From: Armatimonadota bacterium
Lineage (GTDB): Bacteria; Armatimonadota; Zipacnadia; Zipacnadales; UBA5352
NCBI GenBank assembly: GCA_034722055.1
Contig: JAYENL010000149.1
Span: 54,307-67,929, forward strand
Reading direction: 5' to 3'
Length of the DNA: 13,623 nt
Under the pieces are notes generated by a model that was given only the letters and a program-made list of their open reading frames with translations, was not told the origin of the DNA and made no database searches. The position numbers were made by a program, and so were the translations under genes. Shown one piece after another: positions 1 through 13,623 of this stretch; positions within the stretch are counted from its first letter, which is position 1, and every line of letters begins with the position of its first letter.

Positions 1-1
1 G

Positions 2-1261
2 CTGCTGGCCCTGGGTCGCGACCGGGAGGCTGCGGAGGCCCTGGAGCGGCTTGAGGACCCACCTCTGGTGTGCTTCCCGCGCCTGAGCTGGCCCGACGGG
101 CAGAGAGCTCGGGTCCGGCAGGCGTGGCTGATGCGCTCGGAGCTGGCGGAGCGGGAGCGGGACTGGGGGCTGATGGAGCGCTGCCTGGACGAGGCGCTGG
201 CGGTGGAGCCCGAGGACCTCGTCTCGAAGGCCCGCCGCACGTGGGCGCGGGTGCAGCGGCTGCACGACGGCGCGGCGGACGAGAGCGACCGAGCGGACCT
301 TGAGGGTCTCGTGGAGGAGGACGTGACGGAGCTGCGTGAGGCCCCGATGAGCGGTGGGGCCATGTTCTACCGCAGCCGCGTGCTCGAGGGGCGCTGCCCC
401 GAGCGCGCCGTTCGGGACTGGCGCGCGCTGGTTGGGCAGCGCGAGTGGCTGGCCGAGTGCGGGGACGCCCGCGAGCCCCGCCTGGTCTGGCTCGGGGATC
501 GACTGGCGCGCAGGGGCGCGTGGGAGGACGCCGAGGTCGCCTACCGGGGCGCGGCCGACGCAGGCGCGGACGTGCAGGAGCGCCTGGAGATCACCCGGAT
601 CGCCAAGCTCATGCACGAGCCGCCGGCGGAGCAGGTGCGTGCCTGCCAGGACGCTGCCGAGCGGCACCCCGATAGCGGCCTGTGGCCGCTCCTGGGCGCA
701 CTGGCGGCTCTGCAGAGCGAGCCGCCCGACACGGACGGCGCGCGAGAGCTGGCGGCTGAGGCGCGCGAGCGCGGGGCTGCTGCTGCGGCCATCGTCGAGG
801 CGCTGTGCGGCGTGCTGGATGGCGATGACCGGGCGGGGGATGTTCTGTCCGACCTGCTCGATGGGGGCGACAGGCGGGATGTCCCGCCCGTGGTTGAGGC
901 CGGGCTGAGGCTGCTCGCCGGCGACGGCGACAGGCTCGCGGGGCTGTGGCAGTTCAGGAAGCAGGCCGGGGAGGAATGGATGTCGCTGCTGCCGGTCGAT
1001 CCCGGGGCGGCACTGGGCAGCGCGCTGGCCGAGGCCCGGCAGGGGGATCTCGCGCGAGCGGCTGAGCTGGCAGAGGACCTGCGGGAGCAGGGCGTGGAGC
1101 TGCAGACGGACGAGGTTGTGCGCCTGCTGTGCCTCCACGCGATCGAGCTTGCCAGCCAGGGGCGCTTCGACGAGGCCGATGACGCGGCGGTGACGGCGCG
1201 AGCGCTCACCCATGATCAATGGGGGCGGAGTGAGAGCGATGAGGCTCTTCGACGGGAATGA
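2..1261 (+). CDS. Alpha-helical, TPR-like repeat protein; 5'-partial (starts upstream of the window)
   Basis: The frame of ORF 68..1261 is open from position 2 (LLALGRDREAAEALERL...), so GTG68 is probably not the true start. It has Ala/Leu/Glu/Arg-rich helices with TPR-like motifs: LDEALAVEPED, LGDRLARRGAWEDAEVAYRGA, AAERHPDSGLWPLLGA, LASQGRFDEA. The stop overlaps the start of the next gene. Confidence 0.75.
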   Translation: MLALGRDREAAEALERLEDPPLVCFPRLSWPDGQRARVRQAWLMRSELAERERDWGLMERCLDEALAVEPEDLVSKARRTWARVQRLHDGAADESDRADLEGLVEEDVTELREAPMSGGAMFYRSRVLEGRCPERAVRDWRALVGQREWLAECGDAREPRLVWLGDRLARRGAWEDAEVAYRGAADAGADVQERLEITRIAKLMHEPPAEQVRACQDAAERHPDSGLWPLLGALAALQSEPPDTDGARELAAEARERGAAAAAIVEALCGVLDGDDRAGDVLSDLLDGGDRRDVPPVVEAGLRLLAGDGDRLAGLWQFRKQAGEEWMSLLPVDPGAALGSALAEARQGDLARAAELAEDLREQGVELQTDEVVRLLCLHAIELASQGRFDEADDAAVTARALTHDQWGRSESDEALRRE

Positions 1262-3218
1262 GCTGGACCTCGACTGCTTCGATCCGGAGCTGATCACGGC
1301 GACCGAGGGCATGGGGACGGTCATCGCCGCGGCCACCGCCACGGGCAGCCCGGAGATCGAGAGCACCCACTTCCTGATGGCGCTCGTCGGAATCGACGAC
1401 GGCCTGACGCGGCGGGTGTTCGCCGGCCGGGGCTTCGCGCCTGGTCAGTTCGAGAGCGGGCTGGCCGCCTGCGCTGTCTGCGACCGGGAGAGTGTGCCCC
1501 CGGCCTTCATCTCCCGGGACTGCATGCATGCAAGCGCCATGCGGGCCTTCGAGGACCTGGCGGCTCTGGCGGACGAATGGCGTCTGGCGCGGGTAACGGA
1601 GGGAGCGCTGCTCCTAGCTATGCTCCGCAACCTCACCGACGTCGCCCGGCGGCGGCTGGGTGAGCTCGTTGACCTGCCGCAGGTCATTGAGGAGGTGGAG
1701 TTGGAGGCGGGGCCGACGCCGGAGCATGCGGAGGTCTTCGGCCCACAGGACCGCCCACCTGAGGAGCGAGAGGCGCAGCTTGACGCCTTCTCGCCAAGCG
1801 GCCGCCGAGTGCTGCGGATCATGGCGCGCGAGGCGGAGGCCCTGGGGTTCGACCAGGCCGATGCCCGGCACCTGCTCCTGGCCTGCCTGGCCGGGCCGGG
1901 CGAGACGCTGAAGCTCGCCCTCCACCAGCAGGACATCCCGCCCAAGCGCCTGCAGGAGGGGCTGATGCTGGGCCTGCAGGGTCCAGGCGAGCGAGCGCAG
2001 ACCACGGTGGCGCTCAGGGCTGAGGACATGCAGACGGCCGTGCGGCACGTCATCGAGACGGCCGCGGACATCGCCGCCAGGGAGCGCGTCGAGCATATCT
2101 CGGAGAAGCACATCGTCCTGGCCTTCCTGACGGTTGAGACGCTGGCGCGCCGTCTGCTGCTCGACTACGGCTTTGACCCGGGCGCGGCCGTTGACATCAT
2201 CGCCCGGCACGAGATCGACGAGGAGCTGGAGCCTGAGCCTGGCGAGCGGCCGGCGGACCTCGAGGCCGTTCGGGAGCAGCTCGAGACCGCGGTCCTGGGC
2301 CAGAGCGAGGCCGTCAATCAGGTCTTCCGCTATGTCAAGCGCATGATGATGGGCTATCGCGTGCCCGGAAGGCCGGCCGGCGTCTTCCTGTTCTGCGGTG
2401 AGTCCGGGACGGGGAAGACGGAGCTCGCGAAGGCCGTCGCGCGAGCCATCTACGGATCCGAGGAGGCGCTGGTGTTCCTGGAGATGGGCCAGTACCAGAC
2501 ACGCGAGAGCATGAACATGCTGGTCGGCGCCCCGCACGGATACGTGGGCTTCGGCGAGGGGAAGCTGACCAACGCGCTGCGAGACGACCCCCGGCGCGTG
2601 ATCCTCTTCGACGAGTTCGAGAAGGCCCACAGTGAGGTCTACAACGCCGTGTTGCGCTTCCTTGACGAGGGCCGCATTGAGGACCCGGCCGGGCCGGTGC
2701 GCGACGGCCGCGAGTGCATCGTGGTGTTGACCAGCAACGTCGGCGCGGGCGAACTGGCGCAGTTGTGGGAGGGCGTCCCGCCCGGCCCCGAGGGCTATTG
2801 GGAGATCCGCCAGCGCCTGCGGCAGAAGCTGCTGGAGCTGGAGTTCCGACCCGAGCTGCTCAACCGCGTGGATGAGTGCATCCTGTTTCGCGATCTCGGG
2901 GACCAGGTCCTGACCGCCATAGCGGACCGAGAGATCGGCAGATGCGTCGCCTGGCTCGAGAACGAGCTGGGCGTCGAGGTCGAGGTGGCACGGGACGTGG
3001 CCGACCAGATCGGCTCCTTCTGCTCGCAGTCAAAGGAGGGCGCGCGGCTTGCGCACCGCGTGGCCCGAGCCGTGATCCTCGACCCGGTGCTCGACTTCGT
3101 GCTGGAGGCGGCAGAGCCGGAGCTCGACCGAGTTGAGGTGCGCGCGCGCCCCGGTCAGGACGGTCACCCCTACGGGACCGTCTCGGCGGCCTCCGAGGCA
3201 CCGCGGCCGGGTGAGTGA
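1239..3218 (+). CDS. Atypical Clp/Hsp100-family AAA+ ATPase: four Clp-N repeats plus a single ClpA/B-type D2 module (659 aa)
   Basis: D2 motifs: entry VLGQSEAV, Walker A GESGTGKT (2397-2420), pore loop GAPHGYVG, Walker B ILFDEFEKAH, FLDEGRIED, sensor-1 TSN, FRPELLNRVDE and sensor-2 GAR. The N-terminal half has four Clp-N-like repeats (IESTHFLMAL, VTEGALLLAML, ADARHLLLACL, ISEKHIVLAFL). ATG1239 is preferred over ATG1212 because GGAG lies at 1227-1230. Confidence 0.9.
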   Translation: MRLFDGNELDLDCFDPELITATEGMGTVIAAATATGSPEIESTHFLMALVGIDDGLTRRVFAGRGFAPGQFESGLAACAVCDRESVPPAFISRDCMHASAMRAFEDLAALADEWRLARVTEGALLLAMLRNLTDVARRRLGELVDLPQVIEEVELEAGPTPEHAEVFGPQDRPPEEREAQLDAFSPSGRRVLRIMAREAEALGFDQADARHLLLACLAGPGETLKLALHQQDIPPKRLQEGLMLGLQGPGERAQTTVALRAEDMQTAVRHVIETAADIAARERVEHISEKHIVLAFLTVETLARRLLLDYGFDPGAAVDIIARHEIDEELEPEPGERPADLEAVREQLETAVLGQSEAVNQVFRYVKRMMMGYRVPGRPAGVFLFCGESGTGKTELAKAVARAIYGSEEALVFLEMGQYQTRESMNMLVGAPHGYVGFGEGKLTNALRDDPRRVILFDEFEKAHSEVYNAVLRFLDEGRIEDPAGPVRDGRECIVVLTSNVGAGELAQLWEGVPPGPEGYWEIRQRLRQKLLELEFRPELLNRVDECILFRDLGDQVLTAIADREIGRCVAWLENELGVEVEVARDVADQIGSFCSQSKEGARLAHRVARAVILDPVLDFVLEAAEPELDRVEVRARPGQDGHPYGTVSAASEAPRPGE

Positions 3219-3223
3219 GGAGG

Positions 3224-3228
3224 GGAGG
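3224..3228 (+). promoter_or_regulatory. Shine-Dalgarno site of the kinase gene
   Basis: GGAGG lies 6 nt before ATG3235. Confidence 0.7.
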
Positions 3229-3234
3229 CGGAGG

Positions 3235-4563
3235 ATGAGCGCGACTGACGGTGAGCTGCTGATGGGCCGGTACCGGCTCTACGAGAGGCTGGGCCAGGGA
3301 GGGTTCGGCACGGTCTACCGCGCCGACCAGATGACCTTCGGCCAGCCGCTGCGCGAGGTGGCCATCAAGATCTCCAACAGGCCGCTCAGCCCCTCCGAGG
3401 CGCGAGCTACCTTCGCCGACGCGCTTCTGCTGGCCCGGCTGAGCGATGAGTGTGGCGACCCGACCATCAAGTCGCGTCTTGTCACCATCTACGACGCCGG
3501 CCACTGCGGCGACGGGGAGTTCCAGGGACGCGCCTACTGCGTGATGGAGATAGCGCGCGGCGGGAGCCTCCGACGGCGGCTCACGGGCAGGCCCCTGCCG
3601 CTGAAGCAGACGCTGCACTACATGTCGCAGGTGCTGGAGACGGTGGCCTACATGCACCAGGGGAGCACCGATCGCCATGGGCAGCGTCGCCCCGTCGTAC
3701 ACCGCGACCTGAAGCCCTCGAACGTTCTCATCGCCACGGCGGGTGCAGACAGTAGCCGCGGCGAGCAACTGAAGGTCAGCGACTTCGGGCTCGCTGTTGA
3801 CGTAGGACCGATGCTGGGGTGGGCCGAGGCGGGCGGCACTCTCGCATACATGGCCCCGGAGTCCTTCTCCGAGCAGCGCTGTTCGCCGGCCACCGACGTC
3901 TACTCCCTGGGGCTGATGTTCTACGAGATGCTCACGGGCGTCCAGCCGTTTGCCGACGTGGCCGCTCATGTGCGCGGCAGCACCGGCGAGCGAGCGCCCG
4001 AGGTGAGAGAGGCGCACATGCGGGCCCGCGACCGCGAGACCTTCGGCCTGCTCGACCAGGCCGCCGAACTGCGCGACGAGCCCGCGCTGCGGGCCGTCAT
4101 TCACCGATGCCTGGAGGCCGAGGAGGCGGAGCGCTACCAGGACGCGCGGGATCTGCTCGCAGACCTCAGGCGCGCAACAGGCGAGGACAGGGGCGGTCCG
4201 CTGCTGCCGAGGGAGGTCTCTCCCCGTGAGGAGATCCTGGGGCTGGTGGAACGCGCGCGGCGCCTGCTGCAGTTGGGGGAGCGTGACGCGGCGCGGCAGT
4301 TGGCCGACCAGGCGATGGCGACGAATCGCGAGCCCACGCTGGTGTCCGACGAGCAGGTGGTGGGCGCGGCGTACGAGCTGACGGTTCGGCTGATGCTCGA
4401 GGACGGGGAGGTCGATGAGGCGCGGCGAGTGGCCAACGAGGGATACCAGCGGCGCCGCTGTCGGGGAACGTGCCAGGCCATGGCGATGTGCCTGGAGCGG
4501 ATGGGGGCCGGTGCCGCCCGCGCTTTCCGCGCCGAGGCGCAGAGGCACCCGCCGGAGAGCTGA
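3235..4563 (+). CDS. Hanks-type Ser/Thr protein kinase with a C-terminal helical TPR-like extension (442 aa); no transmembrane segment evident
   Basis: Motifs GRYRLYERLGQGGFGTVY, VAIK, VVHRDLKPSNVL, DFG, GTLAYMAPE, DVYSLG and CLEAEEAERYQ. ATG3235 has a good RBS, and the upstream part of track ORF 3133 overlaps the Clp gene. The last ~120 aa are helical (LLQLGERDAARQLADQAM, MLEDGEVDEARRVA). Confidence 0.95.
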   Translation: MSATDGELLMGRYRLYERLGQGGFGTVYRADQMTFGQPLREVAIKISNRPLSPSEARATFADALLLARLSDECGDPTIKSRLVTIYDAGHCGDGEFQGRAYCVMEIARGGSLRRRLTGRPLPLKQTLHYMSQVLETVAYMHQGSTDRHGQRRPVVHRDLKPSNVLIATAGADSSRGEQLKVSDFGLAVDVGPMLGWAEAGGTLAYMAPESFSEQRCSPATDVYSLGLMFYEMLTGVQPFADVAAHVRGSTGERAPEVREAHMRARDRETFGLLDQAAELRDEPALRAVIHRCLEAEEAERYQDARDLLADLRRATGEDRGGPLLPREVSPREEILGLVERARRLLQLGERDAARQLADQAMATNREPTLVSDEQVVGAAYELTVRLMLEDGEVDEARRVANEGYQRRRCRGTCQAMAMCLERMGAGAARAFRAEAQRHPPES

Positions 4564-4598
4564 CGAGAGGCGGACCGCCTCCGGACTGAGATGCGACC

Positions 4599-5723
4599 AT
4601 GAGTGGCGAGTTGAGCGAGATCACCGTGGAGGTTCAGAGCGGCCTGAGAGAGGCCCGCAGGCTGTTGTGGGCCGCTCGAGGCTGGGAGCAGCTCGGCGGC
4701 CAGCAAGCGGGCTCGCCCTATCAGCCCCAACCGCACAATGACCGGGCGCGCGCGACCTTTGAGGCGGGCCTGCAGGTGCTGGGGGACGATCCTGCGCTCC
4801 TGCACCACCTTGCCGTGGCCGAACATGCCCGGGCGTGGGACCTGGAGCTGGAGGGCTCGGTCCTGGCGCCGGACGCCTGGCGCCGGGCCCTCGACATCTG
4901 GCACCGCCTCCACGGCTGCCCTGCGTTCTGGCAATCGATGCGGGAGAGGGCCGCGCAGCTTCAGCCCCCGGTGGATCCGGCGGTCGTGGACGAGCTTCGG
5001 GCCGCGCTATACGGGGAGCTGCTGGGGATCCACGTGGCCTTCGTGCGTCACTACTGCGACCAGGGCGACGTGAGCCGAGCCCGTCCGCATGTTGAGCTGA
5101 TCCGACAGACGCAGCTTCCGCCCGCCGTCCATGAGGAGATGCCCGAGCTGCTGTATGCGGCGATGACCGGCTCGCTGGGCGATCTGATGGCGAGCCAGGA
5201 ATACGACCAGGCGGCGCGGACCATCGAGCGCTATCTTGAGTTCTACCCCGATCACCTGCGGGCGCTGCAGACGCTCGCAGAGATCCTCCGCGACTGGGCG
5301 CGGGTGACGTCGGCGGCAGACGACTGGCCAACCGTCATGGAGATCGCACAACGCGCAGGAACATGGGCGCGAGAGCTGGATCAGCACGAGGCTCTCGAGG
5401 AGGCGCCTCTGGCCCGGCTGGCGCTGACGCGGCTGGGGGCCACGCTGGCGCGCAGATTCTACAGGAAGCTCAGCCAGGTTTTCAGTGACGCTCCTGATAC
5501 GACAGCCTGGATCGGCGACGAGCACCTGGCTTGGGCAGACCAGGCCGTCCGCTGGGCTGAGCTGGCCCACGATTACGATGCGTCGCGCGAGTACATGCTC
5601 CTGCTGAGCGCCAGCCTCTACCTGCGCGCCCGGTGCGCGACGGCGCTGGGCGACACGAGCCTTGGCTTGACGGATTACCAGCGACACATCCAGCTTACGA
5701 GGCGCATCGAGCAGGAGGAGTAG
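4599..5723 (+). CDS. Alpha-helical, TPR-like hypothetical protein (374 aa)
   Basis: Fills the operon gap with host-like codon bias. TPR-like segments include ARATFEAGLQVLGDDPALLHHLAVA, QEYDQAARTIERYLEFYPDHLRALQTLA and RARCATALGDTSLGLTDY. Confidence 0.8.
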   Translation: MSGELSEITVEVQSGLREARRLLWAARGWEQLGGQQAGSPYQPQPHNDRARATFEAGLQVLGDDPALLHHLAVAEHARAWDLELEGSVLAPDAWRRALDIWHRLHGCPAFWQSMRERAAQLQPPVDPAVVDELRAALYGELLGIHVAFVRHYCDQGDVSRARPHVELIRQTQLPPAVHEEMPELLYAAMTGSLGDLMASQEYDQAARTIERYLEFYPDHLRALQTLAEILRDWARVTSAADDWPTVMEIAQRAGTWARELDQHEALEEAPLARLALTRLGATLARRFYRKLSQVFSDAPDTTAWIGDEHLAWADQAVRWAELAHDYDASREYMLLLSASLYLRARCATALGDTSLGLTDYQRHIQLTRRIEQEE

Positions 5724-5736
5724 CCGCTCCGAAGGG

Positions 5737-6288
5737 ATGACTGCGCCTGCTCCGTGCCTGCTGCCCAGCCCATCGGGCAAAGGAGATGCACTCGGGATAA
5801 TGCACAGCAGCCCGTGGCGAAGAGGTCCGCTGAGCCGCAATCCCTACTACTACACGGCATTCCATGTGCTGAGGATGCCCCCATCCGTGGTGCAGCGCCA
5901 CGCCGTCCGCCAGCACGTCCTCCAGGCCCGCAACCTGGCCGCCGCCATGCCCCAAGCGCACCGGATATGCGGCGAGCTGGTCACCGAGTCGGAGATCAAC
6001 GAGGCCAGCGAGATCCTGGCGGGTGGCCCCAGCCGCCTGTGGGAGGAGCTGGTGGCGCATCGACCGGAGGAGTACATCACGCCCGGACTGCAACGGCTCC
6101 GAGAGCGGCTGCATTCGCTCGCGCCGGAGGCGCCGATGGCTGATGACGGGCCCCCACTGCGCCTGCCTGCGTTGCTCAGGCGCTGGATGGAGCACCTGCT
6201 TTCGCAGCAGGTGGGGGAGACGACTGACAGCGAGCTTGTGTCAGCCTCGACCTACCGGCCGATCCCGCCATGCGGAGGAGGCACCTGA
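5737..6288 (+). CDS. Degenerate J-domain-like protein lacking the HPD motif; start uncertain (5737 or 5800)
   Basis: NPYYYTAFHVLRMP resembles J-domain helix I (xPYxVLG). EINEASEILAGGPSRL resembles helix III-IV (EINEAYEVLSDPxKR). The gene lies directly upstream of the GrpE-like and Hsp70 genes, and its stop is 1 nt before the next start. Confidence 0.6.
   Translation: MTAPAPCLLPSPSGKGDALGIMHSSPWRRGPLSRNPYYYTAFHVLRMPPSVVQRHAVRQHVLQARNLAAAMPQAHRICGELVTESEINEASEILAGGPSRLWEELVAHRPEEYITPGLQRLRERLHSLAPEAPMADDGPPLRLPALLRRWMEHLLSQQVGETTDSELVSASTYRPIPPCGGGT
6274..6281 (+). promoter_or_regulatory. Shine-Dalgarno site of the GrpE-like gene
   Basis: GGAGGAGG lies 8 nt before GTG6290, inside the 3' end of the preceding gene, which is consistent with translational coupling. 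Confidence 0.7.
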
Positions 6289-6289
6289 C

Positions 6290-6805
6290 GTGGACCCAAG
6301 CTTCGAGATCGGCGCCAGGCAGAGGTCGGTGGCGCCACTGGTCGAGGCGGATGCCACGCCCGTGACGCTGGCCTGGCATGCGCAGAGCCGATGGGAGGGC
6401 GAGCGGGCGCGGCAGCGCCAGGCGCTGCAGGAGGCGTGGAAAAGCGCCCAATCGGCCTGGATCGCGCTCGCCGATGAGTACCATCGCCTGACGGGCATTG
6501 CCGACAGGCTCCGGCCGGTGCTGGAGGAGGTGGGCGAGAGCGAGGCGCTGAAGGCGCTGGAGGTGATGGTCGCCCGCCTGGGCCGGTGCCTGTCAGACGC
6601 TGGCGTGGAATGCGTCCGCCCGGAGGGCGACGCCTTCACTCTGGAGCTGGGCGAGTACTTCGAGAGCGTGGCTCAAAGGCAGTGCCCTGAGACGACCGTG
6701 CTGATTGTCCTGGACGTGGTCGAGCCCGCCATCGTGATGCAGGGGGCTCTGATCCGCCAGGGCAAGGCCGTCATTGGGATCCCGACGGGAGACGGGCAGT
6801 CATAG
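6290..6805 (+). CDS. GrpE-like nucleotide exchange factor, divergent (171 aa)
   Basis: A long N-terminal helix is followed by the GrpE head pattern LSDAGVECVRPEGDAF...FESVAQ...VLDVVEPAIVMQGALIRQGKAVIG (canonical LxxxGVxxIxPxGxxFDP...HEAV...VxxVxxxGYxxxGRLIRPAxVxV). The start is reassigned from 6023 to GTG6290 based on the strong RBS and removal of the overlap. It is adjacent to the Hsp70 gene. Confidence 0.75.
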   Translation: MDPSFEIGARQRSVAPLVEADATPVTLAWHAQSRWEGERARQRQALQEAWKSAQSAWIALADEYHRLTGIADRLRPVLEEVGESEALKALEVMVARLGRCLSDAGVECVRPEGDAFTLELGEYFESVAQRQCPETTVLIVLDVVEPAIVMQGALIRQGKAVIGIPTGDGQS

Positions 6806-6832
6806 CGACGGCGTTCACAGGGGCGTGAGGTC

Positions 6833-9367
6833 ATGCCTATCATCGGAATCGATCTCGGTACGACGTTCAGCGCCGTGGCGGTGCCCGGCGCCCGGGAGGG
6901 CGAGCGGTTCGAGGTTCACGGCGATGTGTCGGTCATCTGCGACCAACACGGGCGCTACGCGGTGCCCTCGGTGGTGGGCCTGGATCGCAATGGCGAGGTC
7001 ATCGTGGGGCATCGCGCCAAGGCCCAGGCGGGGCTGACGCCGGGGCCGATCATGTTCGTGAAGCGCTACATGGGCGGGGATCGGACCTTCCGCCTCGGCG
7101 ACCGGGAGCTGCAGCCCCAGGAGGTCTCCGCACATGTGCTCCGCCACCTCAAGAGGATGGCCGAGGAGGCTCTGGGCGAGCCCGTGGAGCAGGCGGTGAT
7201 CACGGTCCCGGCCTGGTTCAACCTCTTGGCCAAGGACCGCACCGAGGAGGCCGGAGAGCTGGCCGAGCTTGAGGTGGTGAGGGTCGCCCAGGAGCCGGTG
7301 GCCGCGGCCCTGGCCTACTTCAGGGAGTGGCTGGACGAGGAGAGCGGAGAGGGCCCGGAGACGATCCTCACCTACGACCTGGGCGGGGGGACGTTCGATG
7401 CCGCCGTGGTGAGCCGCGCCACCGGCGTGCCGGAGGTGCTCTCCTCCAGGGGCGATCCCTTCCTGGGCGGGTACAACTTCGACCGCCGGTTGGCGCTGCT
7501 GATAACCGAGCGCCTCTGCGAGCAGGACTACGCTCTTGATCTGGACCCGGACGAGGAGAAAGATGCCCTGGCGTGGGCCAAGCTCTTGGTGCTGGCCGAG
7601 CGGGCCAAGATCGAGCTCTCGCGTGAGGCCGTGCACGTCATGCAGGAGCCCAGCACCGGCATTGTCGATCACGAGGGCGTCCCGGTCACCATCGATCTGG
7701 AGATCCCCCGGTCTCAGTTCACTGAGCGGATCGCTCCGCTGATCGACCGCACGATGCAGCTCTGCCAGGCAGCGCTGACAACCGACGATGGTGAGGAGAT
7801 CCCCCGGGAGAGCATCGACGAGGTCATCATGGTGGGTGGCTCCTCGCGCATCCCCATGGTGTCGGAGCGGATCGAAGAGGAATTCGGCATCGTGCCGGAG
7901 CTGCTGGACCCGGACCTGTGCGTGGCCATCGGCGCAGCGGTGCTGGCGGCCGGCGGGCCGCTCTTCAGTGGACAGGTGCGGCTCGACCGAGCACCGGAGG
8001 AGACCGACCAGCGCTTCATCCAGGTCACGGGGAGTGTGCTCCCGGATGGAGAGGAGACGGACCTGGCCGGCTGGCGCGTGGAGCTTGCTCGGGCCGATGG
8101 CGGGTACAGCGACGAGCAGACCACCGGCGAGGCCGGGGGCTTCGCATTCCTCCAGGCCCCGTTGGCGGAGGGCCGGGACAACGAGTTCCGGCTGCGCGTC
8201 TTCGATCTCGATGGCGAGGAGCACTTCTCCCATCAGTTCACGGTCAAGCAGACCGCCGAGCCCAGGGCCGGCGACGTCATCAGCGTTCCTGACACCAACC
8301 GCCTGGCCAAGCCGATCATCCTCCTCACAGCGGACGGGCGCTACACCGCGGCCAGGGCGGGCACGAATCTGCCCTTCAGTTGCACCATCACCGCCGAGAC
8401 CACGACCACCGGCATTCTGCGCGTGCCGGTCCAGGAGGGGGCGACGAAGCTGGGCGAGTGCGTCGTGGAGAATATCCCCCCGGAGGTCCCCGTGGGCACC
8501 GGCGTCGAGATCCACCTGGAGATCAGTCGCAACTACGAGGCCGTGACACGCGCCTACATCCCGGCCATCGCCATGGAGGACGAGCTGCGCGCTGGCCTGA
8601 CCCCCCCGCCCCGGAAGACCATCGAGGAGCTGCGCAGCGAGTTCGCCGCCCTGGAGGTGCGGGCGGGCGACGCGCTGCGAACGGCCACGCCCGGGGAGCT
8701 GTTCCAGGATGGGCGCGGCGACCAGATTCAGGAGGTCACGGAGCACATCCGGGAGGAGTTCGAGAGCGGCCATCCCGACCCCGACCGCACTCAGGAGCTG
8801 GTGAGCGAGCTGGGCTTTTTGGTTGATGATCTTGCCGCAGTGTGGGAGCCCGACCCCTCCCGCCCGGCGTACGACCGCCTGGTCGCCGAGATCGAGCGGC
8901 TGCTCGAGGAGGCGGAGCAGGCGGACGCAACAGTGCGCGACTACGGCTATCGGGAGCGCTTCGCGGCCCTCTGCGACGCCGCCGAGGAGGCCTTCGCGGA
9001 GAAGAACGACACCGGCTGGCGACGGAGTGTGGAGGACCTCCGGGAGCTCAAGGACCAGCTCCGGGGGATCATAGGCGGCGGTGGCGGTACCGATCAGATG
9101 GAGCCGGGCGCCATGATCCTCGCCCTCGGCCAGCACCTCGAGGGTATGCGCGAGGACGCCCGGAAGCAGGGCCTGGAGGCGGAGCTGGATGAGTGTGTGG
9201 CGAGGCTGCGGGAGATCCGCGCCAGGGATTCGGATGCCATGGCCGATGTCTCGGCCCTCTACGTGGACAGGGTCCAGCCGCTGGAGCAGAAGCTCAAAGG
9301 GCGTGCCCCCACGGGCGAGAAAGGCTGGATACGGATTACCGGGGAAGACCAGCCGAATGGTGGATAG
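6833..9367 (+). CDS. Hsp70-family protein, non-canonical (844 aa); not the housekeeping DnaK
   Basis: Nucleotide-binding domain (NBD) motifs IIGIDLGTTFS, VKRYMG, AVITVPAWFN, QEPVAAALAY, YDLGGGTFD, LGGYNFD, AERAKIELS, MVGGSSRIP and DPDLCVAIGAA. After ~7950 it departs from DnaK: there is no DVLLLD linker, and there is an extra beta-rich segment, a divergent substrate-binding-domain (SBD)-like region and a long helical tail. Confidence 0.95.
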   Translation: MPIIGIDLGTTFSAVAVPGAREGERFEVHGDVSVICDQHGRYAVPSVVGLDRNGEVIVGHRAKAQAGLTPGPIMFVKRYMGGDRTFRLGDRELQPQEVSAHVLRHLKRMAEEALGEPVEQAVITVPAWFNLLAKDRTEEAGELAELEVVRVAQEPVAAALAYFREWLDEESGEGPETILTYDLGGGTFDAAVVSRATGVPEVLSSRGDPFLGGYNFDRRLALLITERLCEQDYALDLDPDEEKDALAWAKLLVLAERAKIELSREAVHVMQEPSTGIVDHEGVPVTIDLEIPRSQFTERIAPLIDRTMQLCQAALTTDDGEEIPRESIDEVIMVGGSSRIPMVSERIEEEFGIVPELLDPDLCVAIGAAVLAAGGPLFSGQVRLDRAPEETDQRFIQVTGSVLPDGEETDLAGWRVELARADGGYSDEQTTGEAGGFAFLQAPLAEGRDNEFRLRVFDLDGEEHFSHQFTVKQTAEPRAGDVISVPDTNRLAKPIILLTADGRYTAARAGTNLPFSCTITAETTTTGILRVPVQEGATKLGECVVENIPPEVPVGTGVEIHLEISRNYEAVTRAYIPAIAMEDELRAGLTPPPRKTIEELRSEFAALEVRAGDALRTATPGELFQDGRGDQIQEVTEHIREEFESGHPDPDRTQELVSELGFLVDDLAAVWEPDPSRPAYDRLVAEIERLLEEAEQADATVRDYGYRERFAALCDAAEEAFAEKNDTGWRRSVEDLRELKDQLRGIIGGGGGTDQMEPGAMILALGQHLEGMREDARKQGLEAELDECVARLREIRARDSDAMADVSALYVDRVQPLEQKLKGRAPTGEKGWIRITGEDQPNGG

Positions 9368-9405
9368 TCGGCACTCGCCGCGTAGCAGCACCAAGGGGTA
9401 TGTGC

Positions 9406-9834
9406 ATGTACTCATGTCCGGCGTGCAAGCGCCACGTCGAACCTGATATGGACCGCTGCACGTGCGGCGCCGATCTGCGCCTGCTGCGCGAGCTCCACGC
9501 ACTTGCAGACGCGTGGTTCAACGAGGCCCTCGCCGCAGCCGAGAGGGGTGATATGGCGGCGGCACTCAGGCTCATTGGCGCTTGCTGCACGGCGCGCCCC
9601 CGGGACGCGCAAGCGCGATACGTGATGGCCCAGCTCTTCGCCCAGCTCGGCTGTCTGGATGAGGCGGAGGCCACGCTGGCACGCTGCCATCAGCTCGACC
9701 CCGGCCATCCTGGCGTGGCGGAGTTGCAGCGCGGCCTGGCCCGAACCCGACAGCGCCAGGCGGGCGTGTGGCGAAGGCCCCACCGTGCGTGGGCCGGGAT
9801 GCGCTACGGGAGGCGAGCCGGGCGACTAACCTGA
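9406..9834 (+). CDS. Small zinc-ribbon plus TPR protein (142 aa) with a basic C-terminal tail
   Basis: The N-terminal Cys cluster CPAC-x10-CTCGADL is followed by TPR helices (WFNEALAAAERGDMAAALRLI, ARYVMAQLFAQLGCLDEAEATLARCHQLDPGHP). AAGGGG at 9393-9398 supports ATG9406; ATG9400 is an alternative start. Confidence 0.8.
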   Translation: MYSCPACKRHVEPDMDRCTCGADLRLLRELHALADAWFNEALAAAERGDMAAALRLIGACCTARPRDAQARYVMAQLFAQLGCLDEAEATLARCHQLDPGHPGVAELQRGLARTRQRQAGVWRRPHRAWAGMRYGRRAGRLT

Positions 9835-10036: not shown

Positions 10037-11101
10037 CTAGACGAAATCCGACTTGAGTCCTTCTGACATTCTTCTGTAGTGGGCGAACGCGCCTTGGTAG
10101 TCGCCTGACAACACCATCTCGACCGCTTCCACTATCTCGCTGTAGATCATCCGCCATACGCGCATTGCTTCGGGGTCCTGGCCGATAGCAGCGACAACCT
10201 CCGGGGCTTCCTCGTAGTACTGCTCAACGGCCATACTGCCTGCCGCTGTCGGCAGCAGTCGCTCGTCCCTGAACCACCGGAGAGCTCGCAGCTCAAAGCA
10301 GCCATCCGGTAGCCCCATTGCATCTGCGCAGGCTGTCGTCAGGTAGCATAGCCCCCGTCTTCTCTCTTCCTCCAGGTCTCGCGCCGCCTTTCTGATGGCC
10401 GGATGATCCAGAATCTGGTCGGGTATCGGGACATCTTCCGGACCATCACCGAAGTCGAGCCTGACCTTCCGCCGACGCTGGTGGCGATATCGCTTGAACG
10501 TCAACGACGTCGAGTCGGCGGACGAGGAGGGCTCGTCGTCCATTATCACCCAACCGTCGGCCCCCGACTCCTCGTCCGCACCTTCCTCTTCGTCCTGCGG
10601 TGTACCGGGGGAGGCGGACGGGGAGAGTTGAGCCAACGCCTCATCAGCCGCGTCTCGGATCCACTCGTACTCTCCGACCCGCGTCTGATGCTCTCGCAAC
10701 TGCCTCAAGACTGATATGGCCTTCCTGCCGCCGATCTCTCCGATCAGGCCGCACAATTCTGCACGCCCGCTGACGTCCTTGTCTACCCCTCGGTAGTCCA
10801 ATATCACCTCTGCAAGGGCCTCAATCGCAGCCTCACCACCAGCCAGCAGCTGCGAGCCTTCCTCTTCCTGAGAAGGCCGCGCTGCAGGCACCCACTCGCG
10901 ATCGAAAACCAGGCTTCTCGCAAGCGCACAGTAGTCAGGCGAATCCTGCACCTGCTTGGGCCCCGCAGCATCGAAGACCGTGTCGATCTGCGCGTCACTC
11001 CAGCCTGCCCCGCGCAGCGTCTTGCGTATCGAGGCGTCACTGTGCCCCTTTGCGCGCATCTTCTCGACGTATGACACGGTTTCATCCATGTGCTCCGTCA
11101 T
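10037..11101 (-). CDS. CFI-box-CTERM domain-containing protein with a central HEAT-like repeat (354 aa)
   Basis: The C-terminus GLCYLTTAC...ELRALRWFRDERLL...GSMAVEQYYEEAPEVVAAI matches the CFIATA...LRxFRD...G...YY...P pattern. A central HEAT-like segment reads AELCGLIGEIGGRKAISVL...IRDAADEALAQL, and there is an acidic linker. AAGGTG on the - strand (11109-11114) is a plausible RBS. Confidence 0.8.
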   Translation of the reverse strand: MTEHMDETVSYVEKMRAKGHSDASIRKTLRGAGWSDAQIDTVFDAAGPKQVQDSPDYCALARSLVFDREWVPAARPSQEEEGSQLLAGGEAAIEALAEVILDYRGVDKDVSGRAELCGLIGEIGGRKAISVLRQLREHQTRVGEYEWIRDAADEALAQLSPSASPGTPQDEEEGADEESGADGWVIMDDEPSSSADSTSLTFKRYRHQRRRKVRLDFGDGPEDVPIPDQILDHPAIRKAARDLEEERRRGLCYLTTACADAMGLPDGCFELRALRWFRDERLLPTAAGSMAVEQYYEEAPEVVAAIGQDPEAMRVWRMIYSEIVEAVEMVLSGDYQGAFAHYRRMSEGLKSDFV

Positions 11102-12069: not shown

Positions 12070-13623
12070 GTGCGCAGATCAGCATGCCTGGCGGTCCTTG
12101 CGGCGTGCCTGCTCGGCTCAGCGACGGTTACCCTGGAGGGCCGCGTCAAGCTGGAGGACAACCGGCTCTACGTGGACGGGAAGCCGTTCTTCCCCTACGG
12201 CTGCTGGGGCTGTATCGAGTCAGTGGAATCGATGAAACAGCATCACTTCAACTGCGTGTTCAGCGGCATGGACGGGACGGCCGACCTGCTTGAAGAGGCC
12301 GCAGAGGAGGACTTCTTTGTCATCACCTATCCCTATGCGCCGAGGTGGGGCATGCAGCATGAGGAGCACATCCTGGCTGTCCGCGATCACCCCAACCTCC
12401 TGGCCTGGAATATCGGCGACGATCTGAAGGCCACGGATGTCGAGAAGGTCCGCCATGCCTACGAGTACATCCGTCAGCACGATCCGTATCACCGCCCTGT
12501 AATGCTGGACGTTATCCATGGCTGGGAAAAGTACACGTGGTTCGAGCAGATGTTCTGCGCCTACACGTATCCGCTTGTAAAGCGGCCCACGCTGCTGGAG
12601 TACCAGCAGTTCCTGCGTGACCGGCACGCCATCGTGGGAGCCGACAAGTTCCTGTGGACCTGGGCTCAGGCGCATGTGCAGGACTGGTATACGGCCATGT
12701 ATCTGGGCCCGGAGGCCAGCCTGCCCAGGTCGCTGTATCCGGACGGGACGGAGATGCGGCTGGTGGTCTACTCGGCGCTGGCAGCCGGCTGCAGGGGCAT
12801 ACTCTACTTCCCCAGCCCATTTTTCACCGAGGACTTCCACGGTGTGGATCGCTACGCCGAGGCGGCGCTGATCGGCGTGGAGTTGAAGGTCATCGGGCCG
12901 TGGCTGGCCGAGGGTGTGGTGGGCAAGCATCTGTGGACGTCGGAGCCGACGCTGCACGCCTGGCCGGTGGACTTCCCCGGCGGGACACTGGTGCTGCTGA
13001 TGCACATCGATGACGAGACCCAATACCACGTGGGCGCGGCACGCGCGGAGGGCACGGTGATGCTGCCCCGGCGGTCGCGCGCCGGCGAGCATGTGTATGA
13101 ACTCTCGCTGGGTGATGGCGCCCGGGAGATCACGTCCCGCGTTCGGGATGGCAAGTGCGGCGTGAGCTTCCAGATGACGGACCTGCTGCTGATCACCGAT
13201 GACCAGGCGCTTGCACGTGAGGCCGATGCCAAGCTGGGGAGGCTGCTGGCTGATTCGGCCCGGTATGCCGCCCAGGCGGCCGGGGCGAAGCGCCGGAAGG
13301 TGCAGCGGGTGTTGGCGGCGCTGCACAGAACCCGCTACCCGGACGCCGAGGCCCTGAGCGCCTCGGTGCGGTCTGCCGGGGCCCTGATCCACGACGCCAA
13401 TGAGCTTATTGCGCGGGCGGAGTTCGCCGCGGCGTTTCGATCCGCGCGTGGCGCCGATCGGGTGCTGCGCGAGGCGGTTCGCGATCATTGGCGGCGCATG
13501 AACGCGGACCCATTCGTGCGCGAAATGATGGTGCTCCCGAACTTCTACCTGGCGGAGGGCTACTACCCGATGGTGCGGGCAATGACAGAGGCGGAGCCCT
13601 CAGGGAACCTGCTGCCGAACGGA
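12070..13623 (+). CDS. Putative secreted glycoside-hydrolase-like (clan GH-A-type TIM barrel) protein; 3'-partial
   Basis: Translated by hand, because it is absent from the ORF track (no stop in the window). It begins with a signal-peptide-like MRRSACLAVLAACLLGSA, then RLYVDGKPFFPYG, HFNCV, VRDHPNLLAWNIGDD, YEYIRQHDPYHRPV, FLWTWAQAH and EMRLVVYSALAAGCRGILYF. It ends in GNLLPNG at the window edge. Confidence 0.8.
   Translation, partial: MRRSACLAVLAACLLGSATVTLEGRVKLEDNRLYVDGKPFFPYGCWGCIESVESMKQHHFNCVFSGMDGTADLLEEAAEEDFFVITYPYAPRWGMQHEEHILAVRDHPNLLAWNIGDDLKATDVEKVRHAYEYIRQHDPYHRPVMLDVIHGWEKYTWFEQMFCAYTYPLVKRPTLLEYQQFLRDRHAIVGADKFLWTWAQAHVQDWYTAMYLGPEASLPRSLYPDGTEMRLVVYSALAAGCRGILYFPSPFFTEDFHGVDRYAEAALIGVELKVIGPWLAEGVVGKHLWTSEPTLHAWPVDFPGGTLVLLMHIDDETQYHVGAARAEGTVMLPRRSRAGEHVYELSLGDGAREITSRVRDGKCGVSFQMTDLLLITDDQALAREADAKLGRLLADSARYAAQAAGAKRRKVQRVLAALHRTRYPDAEALSASVRSAGALIHDANELIARAEFAAAFRSARGADRVLREAVRDHWRRMNADPFVREMMVLPNFYLAEGYYPMVRAMTEAEPSGNLLPNG

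Follow-up and report, generated by a model that had tools for sequence, protein, structure and literature searches.

Why would a bacterium that keeps a canonical set of DnaK, DnaJ, GrpE and Clp proteins also encode a second, strongly remodelled set of chaperones side by side with a protein kinase and several TPR proteins? The question is raised by a 13,623-nt stretch of DNA (the window) from an Armatimonadota bacterium (GenBank assembly GCA_034722055.1, contig JAYENL010000149.1, positions 54,307 to 67,929 of the forward strand), in which eight plus-strand genes follow one another in the order TPR, ClpN-AAA, kinase, TPR, J-like, GrpE-like, Hsp70 and zinc-ribbon-TPR (Zn-TPR). An earlier note on this DNA had described these genes as co-oriented and tightly packed, and had proposed that they form an insulated machine for a dedicated client. 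The packing is confirmed: all eight open reading frames (ORFs) are real, and the intergenic gaps are -23, 16, 35, 13, 1, 27 and 38 nt. The genes constitute a real, conserved and apparently undescribed cluster that is assembled from known folds, and its insulation from the housekeeping chaperones, with interactions read from gene context and motifs, is very probable.

Conservation of the cluster and remodelling of its chaperones

A motif specific to the Clp family, which matched none of the longer two-ring ClpB-like sequences, found 62 metagenome loci, 56 of which encode the family; six chance matches were dropped and one duplicate was merged, leaving 55 distinct metagenome loci. In two short loci, gene calling removed the motif, and the resulting tally of 56 loci comprises 53 from metagenomes, two from relatives and the source locus. 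Gene order is fixed across all of them. Among loci with enough sequence, the core TPR gene is present in 34 of 35, the J-like gene in 23 of 24 and the Hsp70 gene in 19 of 21, the kinase (37/47) is accessory and the GrpE-like gene (12/21) is optional, the J-like, GrpE-like and TPR profiles being derived from the same loci and the homologies having first been detected with the window proteins. The Clp family does not represent one clone, because 46 full-length sequences form 41 clusters at 70% identity. In 19 loci, pairwise similarity values for Clp, for TPR and for Hsp70 rise and fall together (Spearman 0.62-0.80); since kin share history, this indicates joint inheritance only and not interaction.

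The cluster is present in genomes of at least three phyla, and its distribution is rare (0–5% in most samples) and patchy, which the earlier note, together with a conserved order, had named as support for its claim: it occurs in 2/40 relatives, 1/250 other genomes of the host phylum, 1/251 genomes around a Planctomycetaceae record, 0/201 genomes of an actinobacterial class and 9/81 Streptomycetaceae genomes. The Streptomycetaceae query (P0064) is recorded as the cultured Embleya scabrispora, and the other matches in this family, at 83-100% identity, are presumably Embleya as well. The four Streptomycetaceae loci inspected (G783, G748, G788 and G759) have a 7-gene core, common flanking genes and no family kinase; in three of the four, an unrelated 860-aa kinase lies several kb off on the opposite strand. 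The phosphorylation control that had been envisaged as a core feature did not hold up, and the kinase as an obligatory switch is rejected, because the kinase is missing from 10/47 loci and from 4/4 inspected Streptomycetaceae loci.

The Clp ATPase (window 1239-3218, +) comprises four ClpN repeats, arranged as two double units, and a single intact AAA+ domain of the D2 type (Pfam Clp_N, AAA_2 and ClpB_D2-small), with neither D1 nor M-domain, just as had been noted before. About 40 full-length relatives of about 650 aa with the same layout were found at the 50% cluster level in a search of 1.84 billion representatives; word-index protein searches recovered just 1 and 2 relatives, and the family alignment has 41 rows. 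Walker A, Walker B and the GAR/AAR motif are conserved in 46/46 sequences and the pore loop in 42/46. The scores of 150-235 bits lie far below the equivalog cut-offs for ClpA/B/V/G/K (885-1900), and by sequence comparison the ATPase is a distinct family outside the ClpA/B/C/V/G equivalogs. The IGF/L loop is the docking motif of the ClpP-coupled unfoldases ClpA/C/X; no IGF-like loop was found in any of the 46 Clps within the 60 residues after the family motif, so this ATPase would remodel its substrates and not feed them to ClpP. Similarly, the TEH motif, which is part of the phospho-arginine site in ClpC-type N-domains, is retained in 1/46 family Clps versus 48/69 canonical N-domains, and on this loss phospho-arginine reading by the ClpN repeats is rejected.

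The Hsp70 (6833-9367, +; 844 aa; Pfam HSP70, E 3e-76) is composed of a nucleotide-binding domain (NBD), a beta-sandwich, the beta part of the substrate-binding domain (SBD-beta) and an extended helical tail. In the structural model, the sandwich of about 100 aa, all beta, at about residues 376-475 replaces the linker. The protein has the features of the Hsp70 superfamily, namely an actin-like NBD, SBD-beta and the ATP-site residues D7, T10, K77, E154, D182 and T187, which are invariant in 24 aligned rows, and the NBD and SBD-beta of the model superpose on ATP-state BiP (5e84) with a Z of 45.7 and an rmsd of 2.5 over 455 residues. A DVLLLD-type linker, the absence of which had been noticed earlier in the window protein, occurs in none of the system Hsp70s listed and in 8/9 DnaK, HscA and HscC references, the single exception being HscC, which carries a variant. 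In an NBD tree of 42 rows (five further rows, in which the NBD ends were not found, were dropped, and the midpoint root serves for drawing only), 27 system Hsp70s split from DnaK, HscA and HscC at 100/97 support; HscC lies beyond this split on a long branch, and its exact placement is unsure. The window Hsp70 scores 272 bits against NCBIfam DnaK cut-offs of 648 and 823, and both Hsp70s of the locus fall below these values, which the DnaK encoded elsewhere in the host exceeds (884 and 852 bits). The window protein is neither a housekeeping DnaK nor the sole Hsp70 of its host, a finding that would have counted against the proposal of the earlier note. Loci L089, L092, L110, L116, L123 and L130 form a subtype in which two insert-type Hsp70 genes in tandem take the place of the GrpE-like gene; it is tempting to speculate that the second of these might act as an exchange factor, by analogy with Hsp110.

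The J-like protein (5737-6288, +) gave no Pfam match. Its family profile retrieved J-domains in 13/15 PDB matches (best E 0.018), an hhalign comparison with the host DnaJ gave E 4e-4 at a probability of 34%, and its structure neighbours in the atlas are DnaJ-type, below the atlas naming bar; these weak but consistent matches point to a J-domain fold. The HPD motif is absent from 23/23 members, which bears out the earlier reading of the window protein, and an invariant histidine follows the J helices. According to the available part of PMC13580251, HPD works via contacts with the Hsp70 linker, and therefore the joint loss of HPD and linker fits a private interface between the two proteins. A complex prediction for Hsp70 and the J-like protein scored 0.00, which is no evidence either way. 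The GrpE-like protein (6290-6805, +) is divergent: Pfam GrpE matches at E 0.002, below the cut-off, the family profile matches the canonical-looking GrpE of the host at E 3e-10, and a pairwise hhalign comparison with another GrpE gave a weak match (E 0.07).

The core TPR-like protein (4599-5723, +), for which the Pfam TPR match is weak, is confidently modelled as an all-helical solenoid (pLDDT 92) and contains a cluster of histidines, H69, H70, H76 and H145 being present in 35/35 sequences and H164 in 33/35. A structure search returned TPR-like matches and no specific match, and no match was found in plasmid or phage collections. In L133, L140 and L112 this protein is fused to the J-like domain, which suggests that the two act as one unit. 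The accessory kinase (3235-4563, +; Pkinase, E 5e-38) is of the Hanks Ser/Thr type and ends in a helical tail; the catalytic K, D and N residues and DFG are conserved in 36/36 sequences (Hanks signature, including the H-x-D-x-K-x-x-N position) and HRD in 17/36.

Extent of the locus, host chaperones and neighbouring genes

Gene 1 (2-1261, +) encodes the C-terminal portion of a large TPR-like helical protein. The window starts immediately past a 100-N scaffold gap, and 127 nt are identical on both sides of it (window 1-127). Because the start of the window repeats the 127 nt preceding the gap, the gap is an assembly artefact, and because this exact overlap spans it, gene 1 forms the 3′ end of a longer gene that encodes about 777 aa. 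Its full ORF begins upstream of the window, at position 53007 of the same contig (G000:C149:53007), and both halves match one continuous homologue in the closest relative (G007) at 62-63%. A large gene lies directly 5′ of Clp in most loci. At the other end, the last gene of the run encodes a small protein with a zinc ribbon and TPRs by Pfam (9406-9834, +; start at 9400 or 9406), homologues of which come after Hsp70 in many loci.

The cluster reaches about 12 kb further upstream, where eight more genes in the same orientation precede gene 1 (G000:C149 42164-54206). These encode a 541-aa protein in which a J-like domain (E 1e-5) is fused to a homologue of the core TPR protein (E 6e-18), a 200-aa member of the GrpE-like family (E 4e-15), a second 844-aa Hsp70 with 28% identity to that of the window, a TPR/coiled-coil protein, an ECF sigma factor, a protein with an HxxxCxxC motif, which we take to be anti-sigma-like, an 807-aa CHAT-ClpN protein in which the His and Cys of CHAT are kept, and a WD40 protein. 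Since a second Hsp70, a J-like/TPR fusion and a GrpE-like homologue are present, the upstream set is a paralogous Hsp70 module, and its sequences contain hydrophobic, TM-like segments. Canonical chaperones are encoded elsewhere in the host: contig C29 carries dnaK, two Hsp20-type genes, dnaJ, a ClpB/C gene and groEL, a second ClpB/C gene lies on C120 and a grpE-like gene on C21. The earlier note had named such a separate set as support for its claim, and together with the co-occurrence in fixed order and the separate Hsp70 branch (100/97) it supports the insulated, dedicated machine proposed there.

Sequence of 6 kb or more upstream of Clp is available for 19 loci, and 11 of these (the source locus, L098, L110, L112, L113, L129, L130, L133, L134, L141 and L148) carry in it a CHAT or TIR gene that is of the ClpN-fused type; the ClpN part is seen in 10, the L098 sequence being cut before it; metagenome loci are limited to 10 kb, so these counts are lower bounds. 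In genome G442, an anti-sigma-like gene is accompanied by genes for a CHAT-like protein of the ClpN-AAA-AAA type and for a further CHAT, and the HxxxCxxC gene precedes a CHAT-type ClpN protein both there and in the source locus. Further conflict-type neighbours are GAP1-N2 double-GTPase systems (L006/L154, L106 and L144), SLATT (L148), vWA/PP2C genes (L089, L116 and L148), an Hsp70-TIR protein (L112) and an Hsp70-kinase-CHAT protein (L091); L143 has a TPR-CHAT gene.

Several of the neighbouring proteins are fusions. Giant proteins (1550-1820 aa) with the layout CHAT-(ClpN)n-AAA-AAA, in which a caspase-like protease is fused to a two-ring Clp motor, are encoded at L113:1-5466, L133:638-5362 and L155:1953-6605. 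An Hsp70 NBD is fused directly to a kinase and CHAT at L091:1997-5260 (-), and a degenerate Hsp70 is fused to TIR at L112:17441-19519. YidC-like (60KD_IMP) domains are fused to the upstream TPR protein at L126:1171-3222 and L136:2163-4217, and genes for such domains directly precede it at L106:13148-14293 and L144:6754-8331.

Possible functions and described systems

There is about an even chance that the cluster encodes a private, ATP-driven remodelling switch that is insulated from DnaK and ClpB and that, in most cases, governs an effector of a conflict response, either self-harming or signalling. In such a switch, the large TPR protein and the His-rich TPR/J-like pair would recognize a trigger or client, the HPD-less J protein would load the client on the linker-less Hsp70 via a co-evolved interface, thereby holding it in one state, and the single-ring ClpN-AAA would pull the client complex apart with no degradation. 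Effectors with ClpN repeats, whether CHAT proteases, TIR proteins or both, may be recruited to or released by this motor and would be the most frequent output. In the source genome, cleavage of the neighbouring anti-sigma-like protein by CHAT would release the ECF sigma factor, and the kinase, where present, may tune the threshold. A bolder and distinctly more doubtful proposal is that the orthogonal Hsp70 cycle and the single-ring Clp set the threshold of an undescribed class of bacterial conflict systems, with the ClpN repeats as a homotypic adaptor for interchangeable caspase-like and TIR effectors and the His-rich TPR as a metal- or phosphate-sensing trigger. If ClpN-fused effectors are indeed the clients, the cluster would represent a chaperone-gated route to the activation of bacterial caspase-like and TIR proteins. 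In the available part of PMC13580251, it is left open what bacterial DnaK derivatives with altered linkers do, and loss of J-protein control is suggested; here, the linker-less Hsp70 is accompanied by a cognate J protein without HPD and by a new Clp family, which points to a cycle that is rewired and not lost.

Whether the output is a conflict response, as far as gene context and motifs can tell, could go either way. The CHAT, TIR and GAP1-N2 neighbours lend indirect support to an anti-phage or conflict role, and among 80 canonical-type ClpB loci CHAT was found in 1/80 and TIR in 0/80; these control loci match the AAA core alone, were not counted as family loci and come from a scan of genome collections in which the Clp alignment gave generic motifs, and the CHAT and TIR profiles were made from system loci, which biases the comparison toward the system side. 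Besides this bias, several observations weigh against such a role. The ClpN repeats of the effectors are mixed, 7/11 being nearer to the family profile and the host's own nearer to the canonical profile. The four inspected Streptomycetaceae loci have no CHAT/TIR gene and share a common chromosomal position, unlike a mobile defence island, and L095 and G117 likewise lack an effector of this type. YidC-like domains occur in four loci, no nuclease was recognized, and PADLOC gave no system-level match for the 18 proteins scanned. The effector-free syntenic copies in Streptomycetaceae in particular weaken the case, which leaves an anti-phage or conflict role finely balanced. The same copies, as a compact kinase-free 7-gene version with a member in the cultured E. 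scabrispora, make the system amenable to direct test.

A different explanation is a dedicated module for envelope or membrane-protein assembly and stress, resembling HscC-DjlBC, which would fold, insert or extract a membrane client and to which the ECF sigma factor and CHAT would be a stress-signalling add-on. The YidC-like domains fused to the upstream TPR protein (L126, L136) or just before it (L106, L144), OmpA in L112, the TM-like segments of the upstream paralogous module and the stable retention of the cluster in 9/81 Streptomycetaceae genomes, with no effectors in the inspected copies, are consistent with this explanation, as is the membrane location of HscC function given in the available part of PMC8215388. 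However, no Pfam membrane family is found among the eight window genes, YidC-like domains occur in 4 loci against 12 with CHAT/TIR genes of the ClpN type, and neighbours such as TIR, SLATT and GAP1-N2 are unexpected for envelope assembly, so that an envelope module seems rather unlikely. A general-purpose disaggregase or refoldase kept in reserve for harsh conditions, similar to the ClpG/ClpK stress islands, would account for the representation of every DnaK-ClpB chaperone class with intact ATPase motifs. It is quite improbable, given a Clp that lacks M-domain and D1 and scores 150-235 bits against cut-offs of 885-1900, the loss of both HPD and linker, a host that already has canonical DnaK, DnaJ, GrpE, ClpB and ClpC, and the fact that small heat-shock and protease genes do not recur in the loci.

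Equally improbable is a scaffold for developmental or cell-fate signalling that is unrelated to infection, in which Hsp70 would act on the kinase as a nucleotide switch and for which the Hsp70-like proteins of Myxococcus offer a parallel. The kinase directly follows Clp in most loci, half of the kinases are non-RD, additional kinase, PP2C and vWA genes lie nearby and filamentous actinomycetes are among the hosts, but the kinase is missing in 10/47 loci and in the actinomycete loci inspected. Finally, most loci lie on metagenome contigs and some parts are barely recognizable, as might be expected if unrelated genes had come together by chance or their assembly were decaying; this is scarcely credible, because order is kept across the 41 Clp clusters (70% identity, 46 sequences) and the catalytic residues are invariant.

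The cluster has counterparts among described systems, none of which it matches. With DnaK-DnaJ-GrpE and ClpB the cluster shares the Hsp70 NBD and SBD-beta, the J fold, a GrpE-like protein, a ClpB-D2-type ring and intact motifs; it differs in lacking HPD, linker, M-domain and D1, in falling below the equivalog cut-offs and in its separate Hsp70 branch, and, unlike the bi-chaperone disaggregase, it adds TPR, kinase and effector genes in a host that has the canonical set at other loci. Among described systems, those nearest in kind are the chaperone-thresholded conflict systems (Kaur et al., 2020; PMC7159879), which in the available part of that paper are MoxR- or GTPase-centred, unlike the cluster. 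There, theme 2 of the GAP1-N2 systems has HSP70, GrpE and fusions with DnaJ or TPR, theme 3 has kinase, PP2C and vWA, the chaperones are proposed as thresholds, and no ClpN-AAA is described. GAP1-N2 systems adjoin the core in L006/L154, L106 and L144. No GAP1-N2 protein, GTPase or double GTPase was recognized by Pfam among the window and upstream genes scanned, which is why membership is rejected, and the Hsp70-vWA type of these systems branches on the DnaK side, apart from the system Hsp70s. In G007, a GAP1-N2 system stands right after the core (L006:11552-20000 and L154:1-3716) and consists of genes for Hsp70-vWA, GrpE, a second Hsp70, a double GTPase and GAP1-N2.

The E. coli HscC-DjlB/DjlC-YbeQRTU cluster likewise combines a specialized Hsp70 and its own J proteins with helical-repeat (Sel1) genes, and is sporadically distributed according to the available text of PMC8215388. 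Its HscC has 556 aa and no insert and lies outside the system branch, DjlB/C are annotated as J-domain co-chaperones, and it has no Clp, kinase or GrpE-like gene; membership is rejected because HscC stands on the opposite side of the 100/97 split. CoCoNuT membership is also rejected, as the available part of PMC10542128 has Hsp70 fused or linked to McrBC and leaves Clp unmentioned. Dodola DolB and PDC-M37B of PADLOC have a single ClpB-like AAA, which matches the AAA core of the Clp (E 1e-24 to 1e-33); the match is limited to about residues 346-514, other core genes hit only generic kinase models, and Dodola membership is rejected on this ground. The axis of the type III-E CRISPR Craspase consists of a CHAT protease, the anti-sigma Csx30 and a sigma factor. 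Upstream of the window, CHAT stands beside an ECF sigma factor gene and an anti-sigma-like one, which recalls this axis by analogy only, since the source locus has no CRISPR effector among its annotated genes and its CHAT is fused to ClpN, not to TPRs. The cluster had not been recognized as a named system in the earlier note either: PADLOC 2.0 on 18 proteins gave only generic kinase, AAA, WD40 and TPR matches and one weak BovA, and no description was found in the open full-text literature, subscription papers lying outside the search. Nor was the cluster found in the supplements of PMC7159879, although figure source data that may lie outside these supplements could list such neighbourhoods.

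Genes flanking the run and the WD40 repeat

At the 3′ end of the gene run, no informative promoter or terminator was found, and a convergent minus-strand ORF ends at window 10037, beyond the Zn-TPR gene. Further downstream, window 12070-13623 (+) contains the 5′ part of a gene for a large protein, apparently unrelated to the cluster, that begins like a signal peptide and has no match in Pfam. The convergent ORF (window 10037-11101, -) encodes 354 aa and has a lower GC content; its C-terminal domain contains Cys residues and belongs to no Pfam family, and its N-terminal 45 residues match the upstream WD40 protein (E 3e-7). The WD40 gene itself (L001:15250-16570; G000:C149 about 51750-53070) sits between the CHAT-ClpN and TPR genes and is flanked by a direct repeat (about 170 nt, about 80% identity), which copies the end of the WD40 gene including its stop codon, so that gene and repeat look like a duplicated or swapped cassette.

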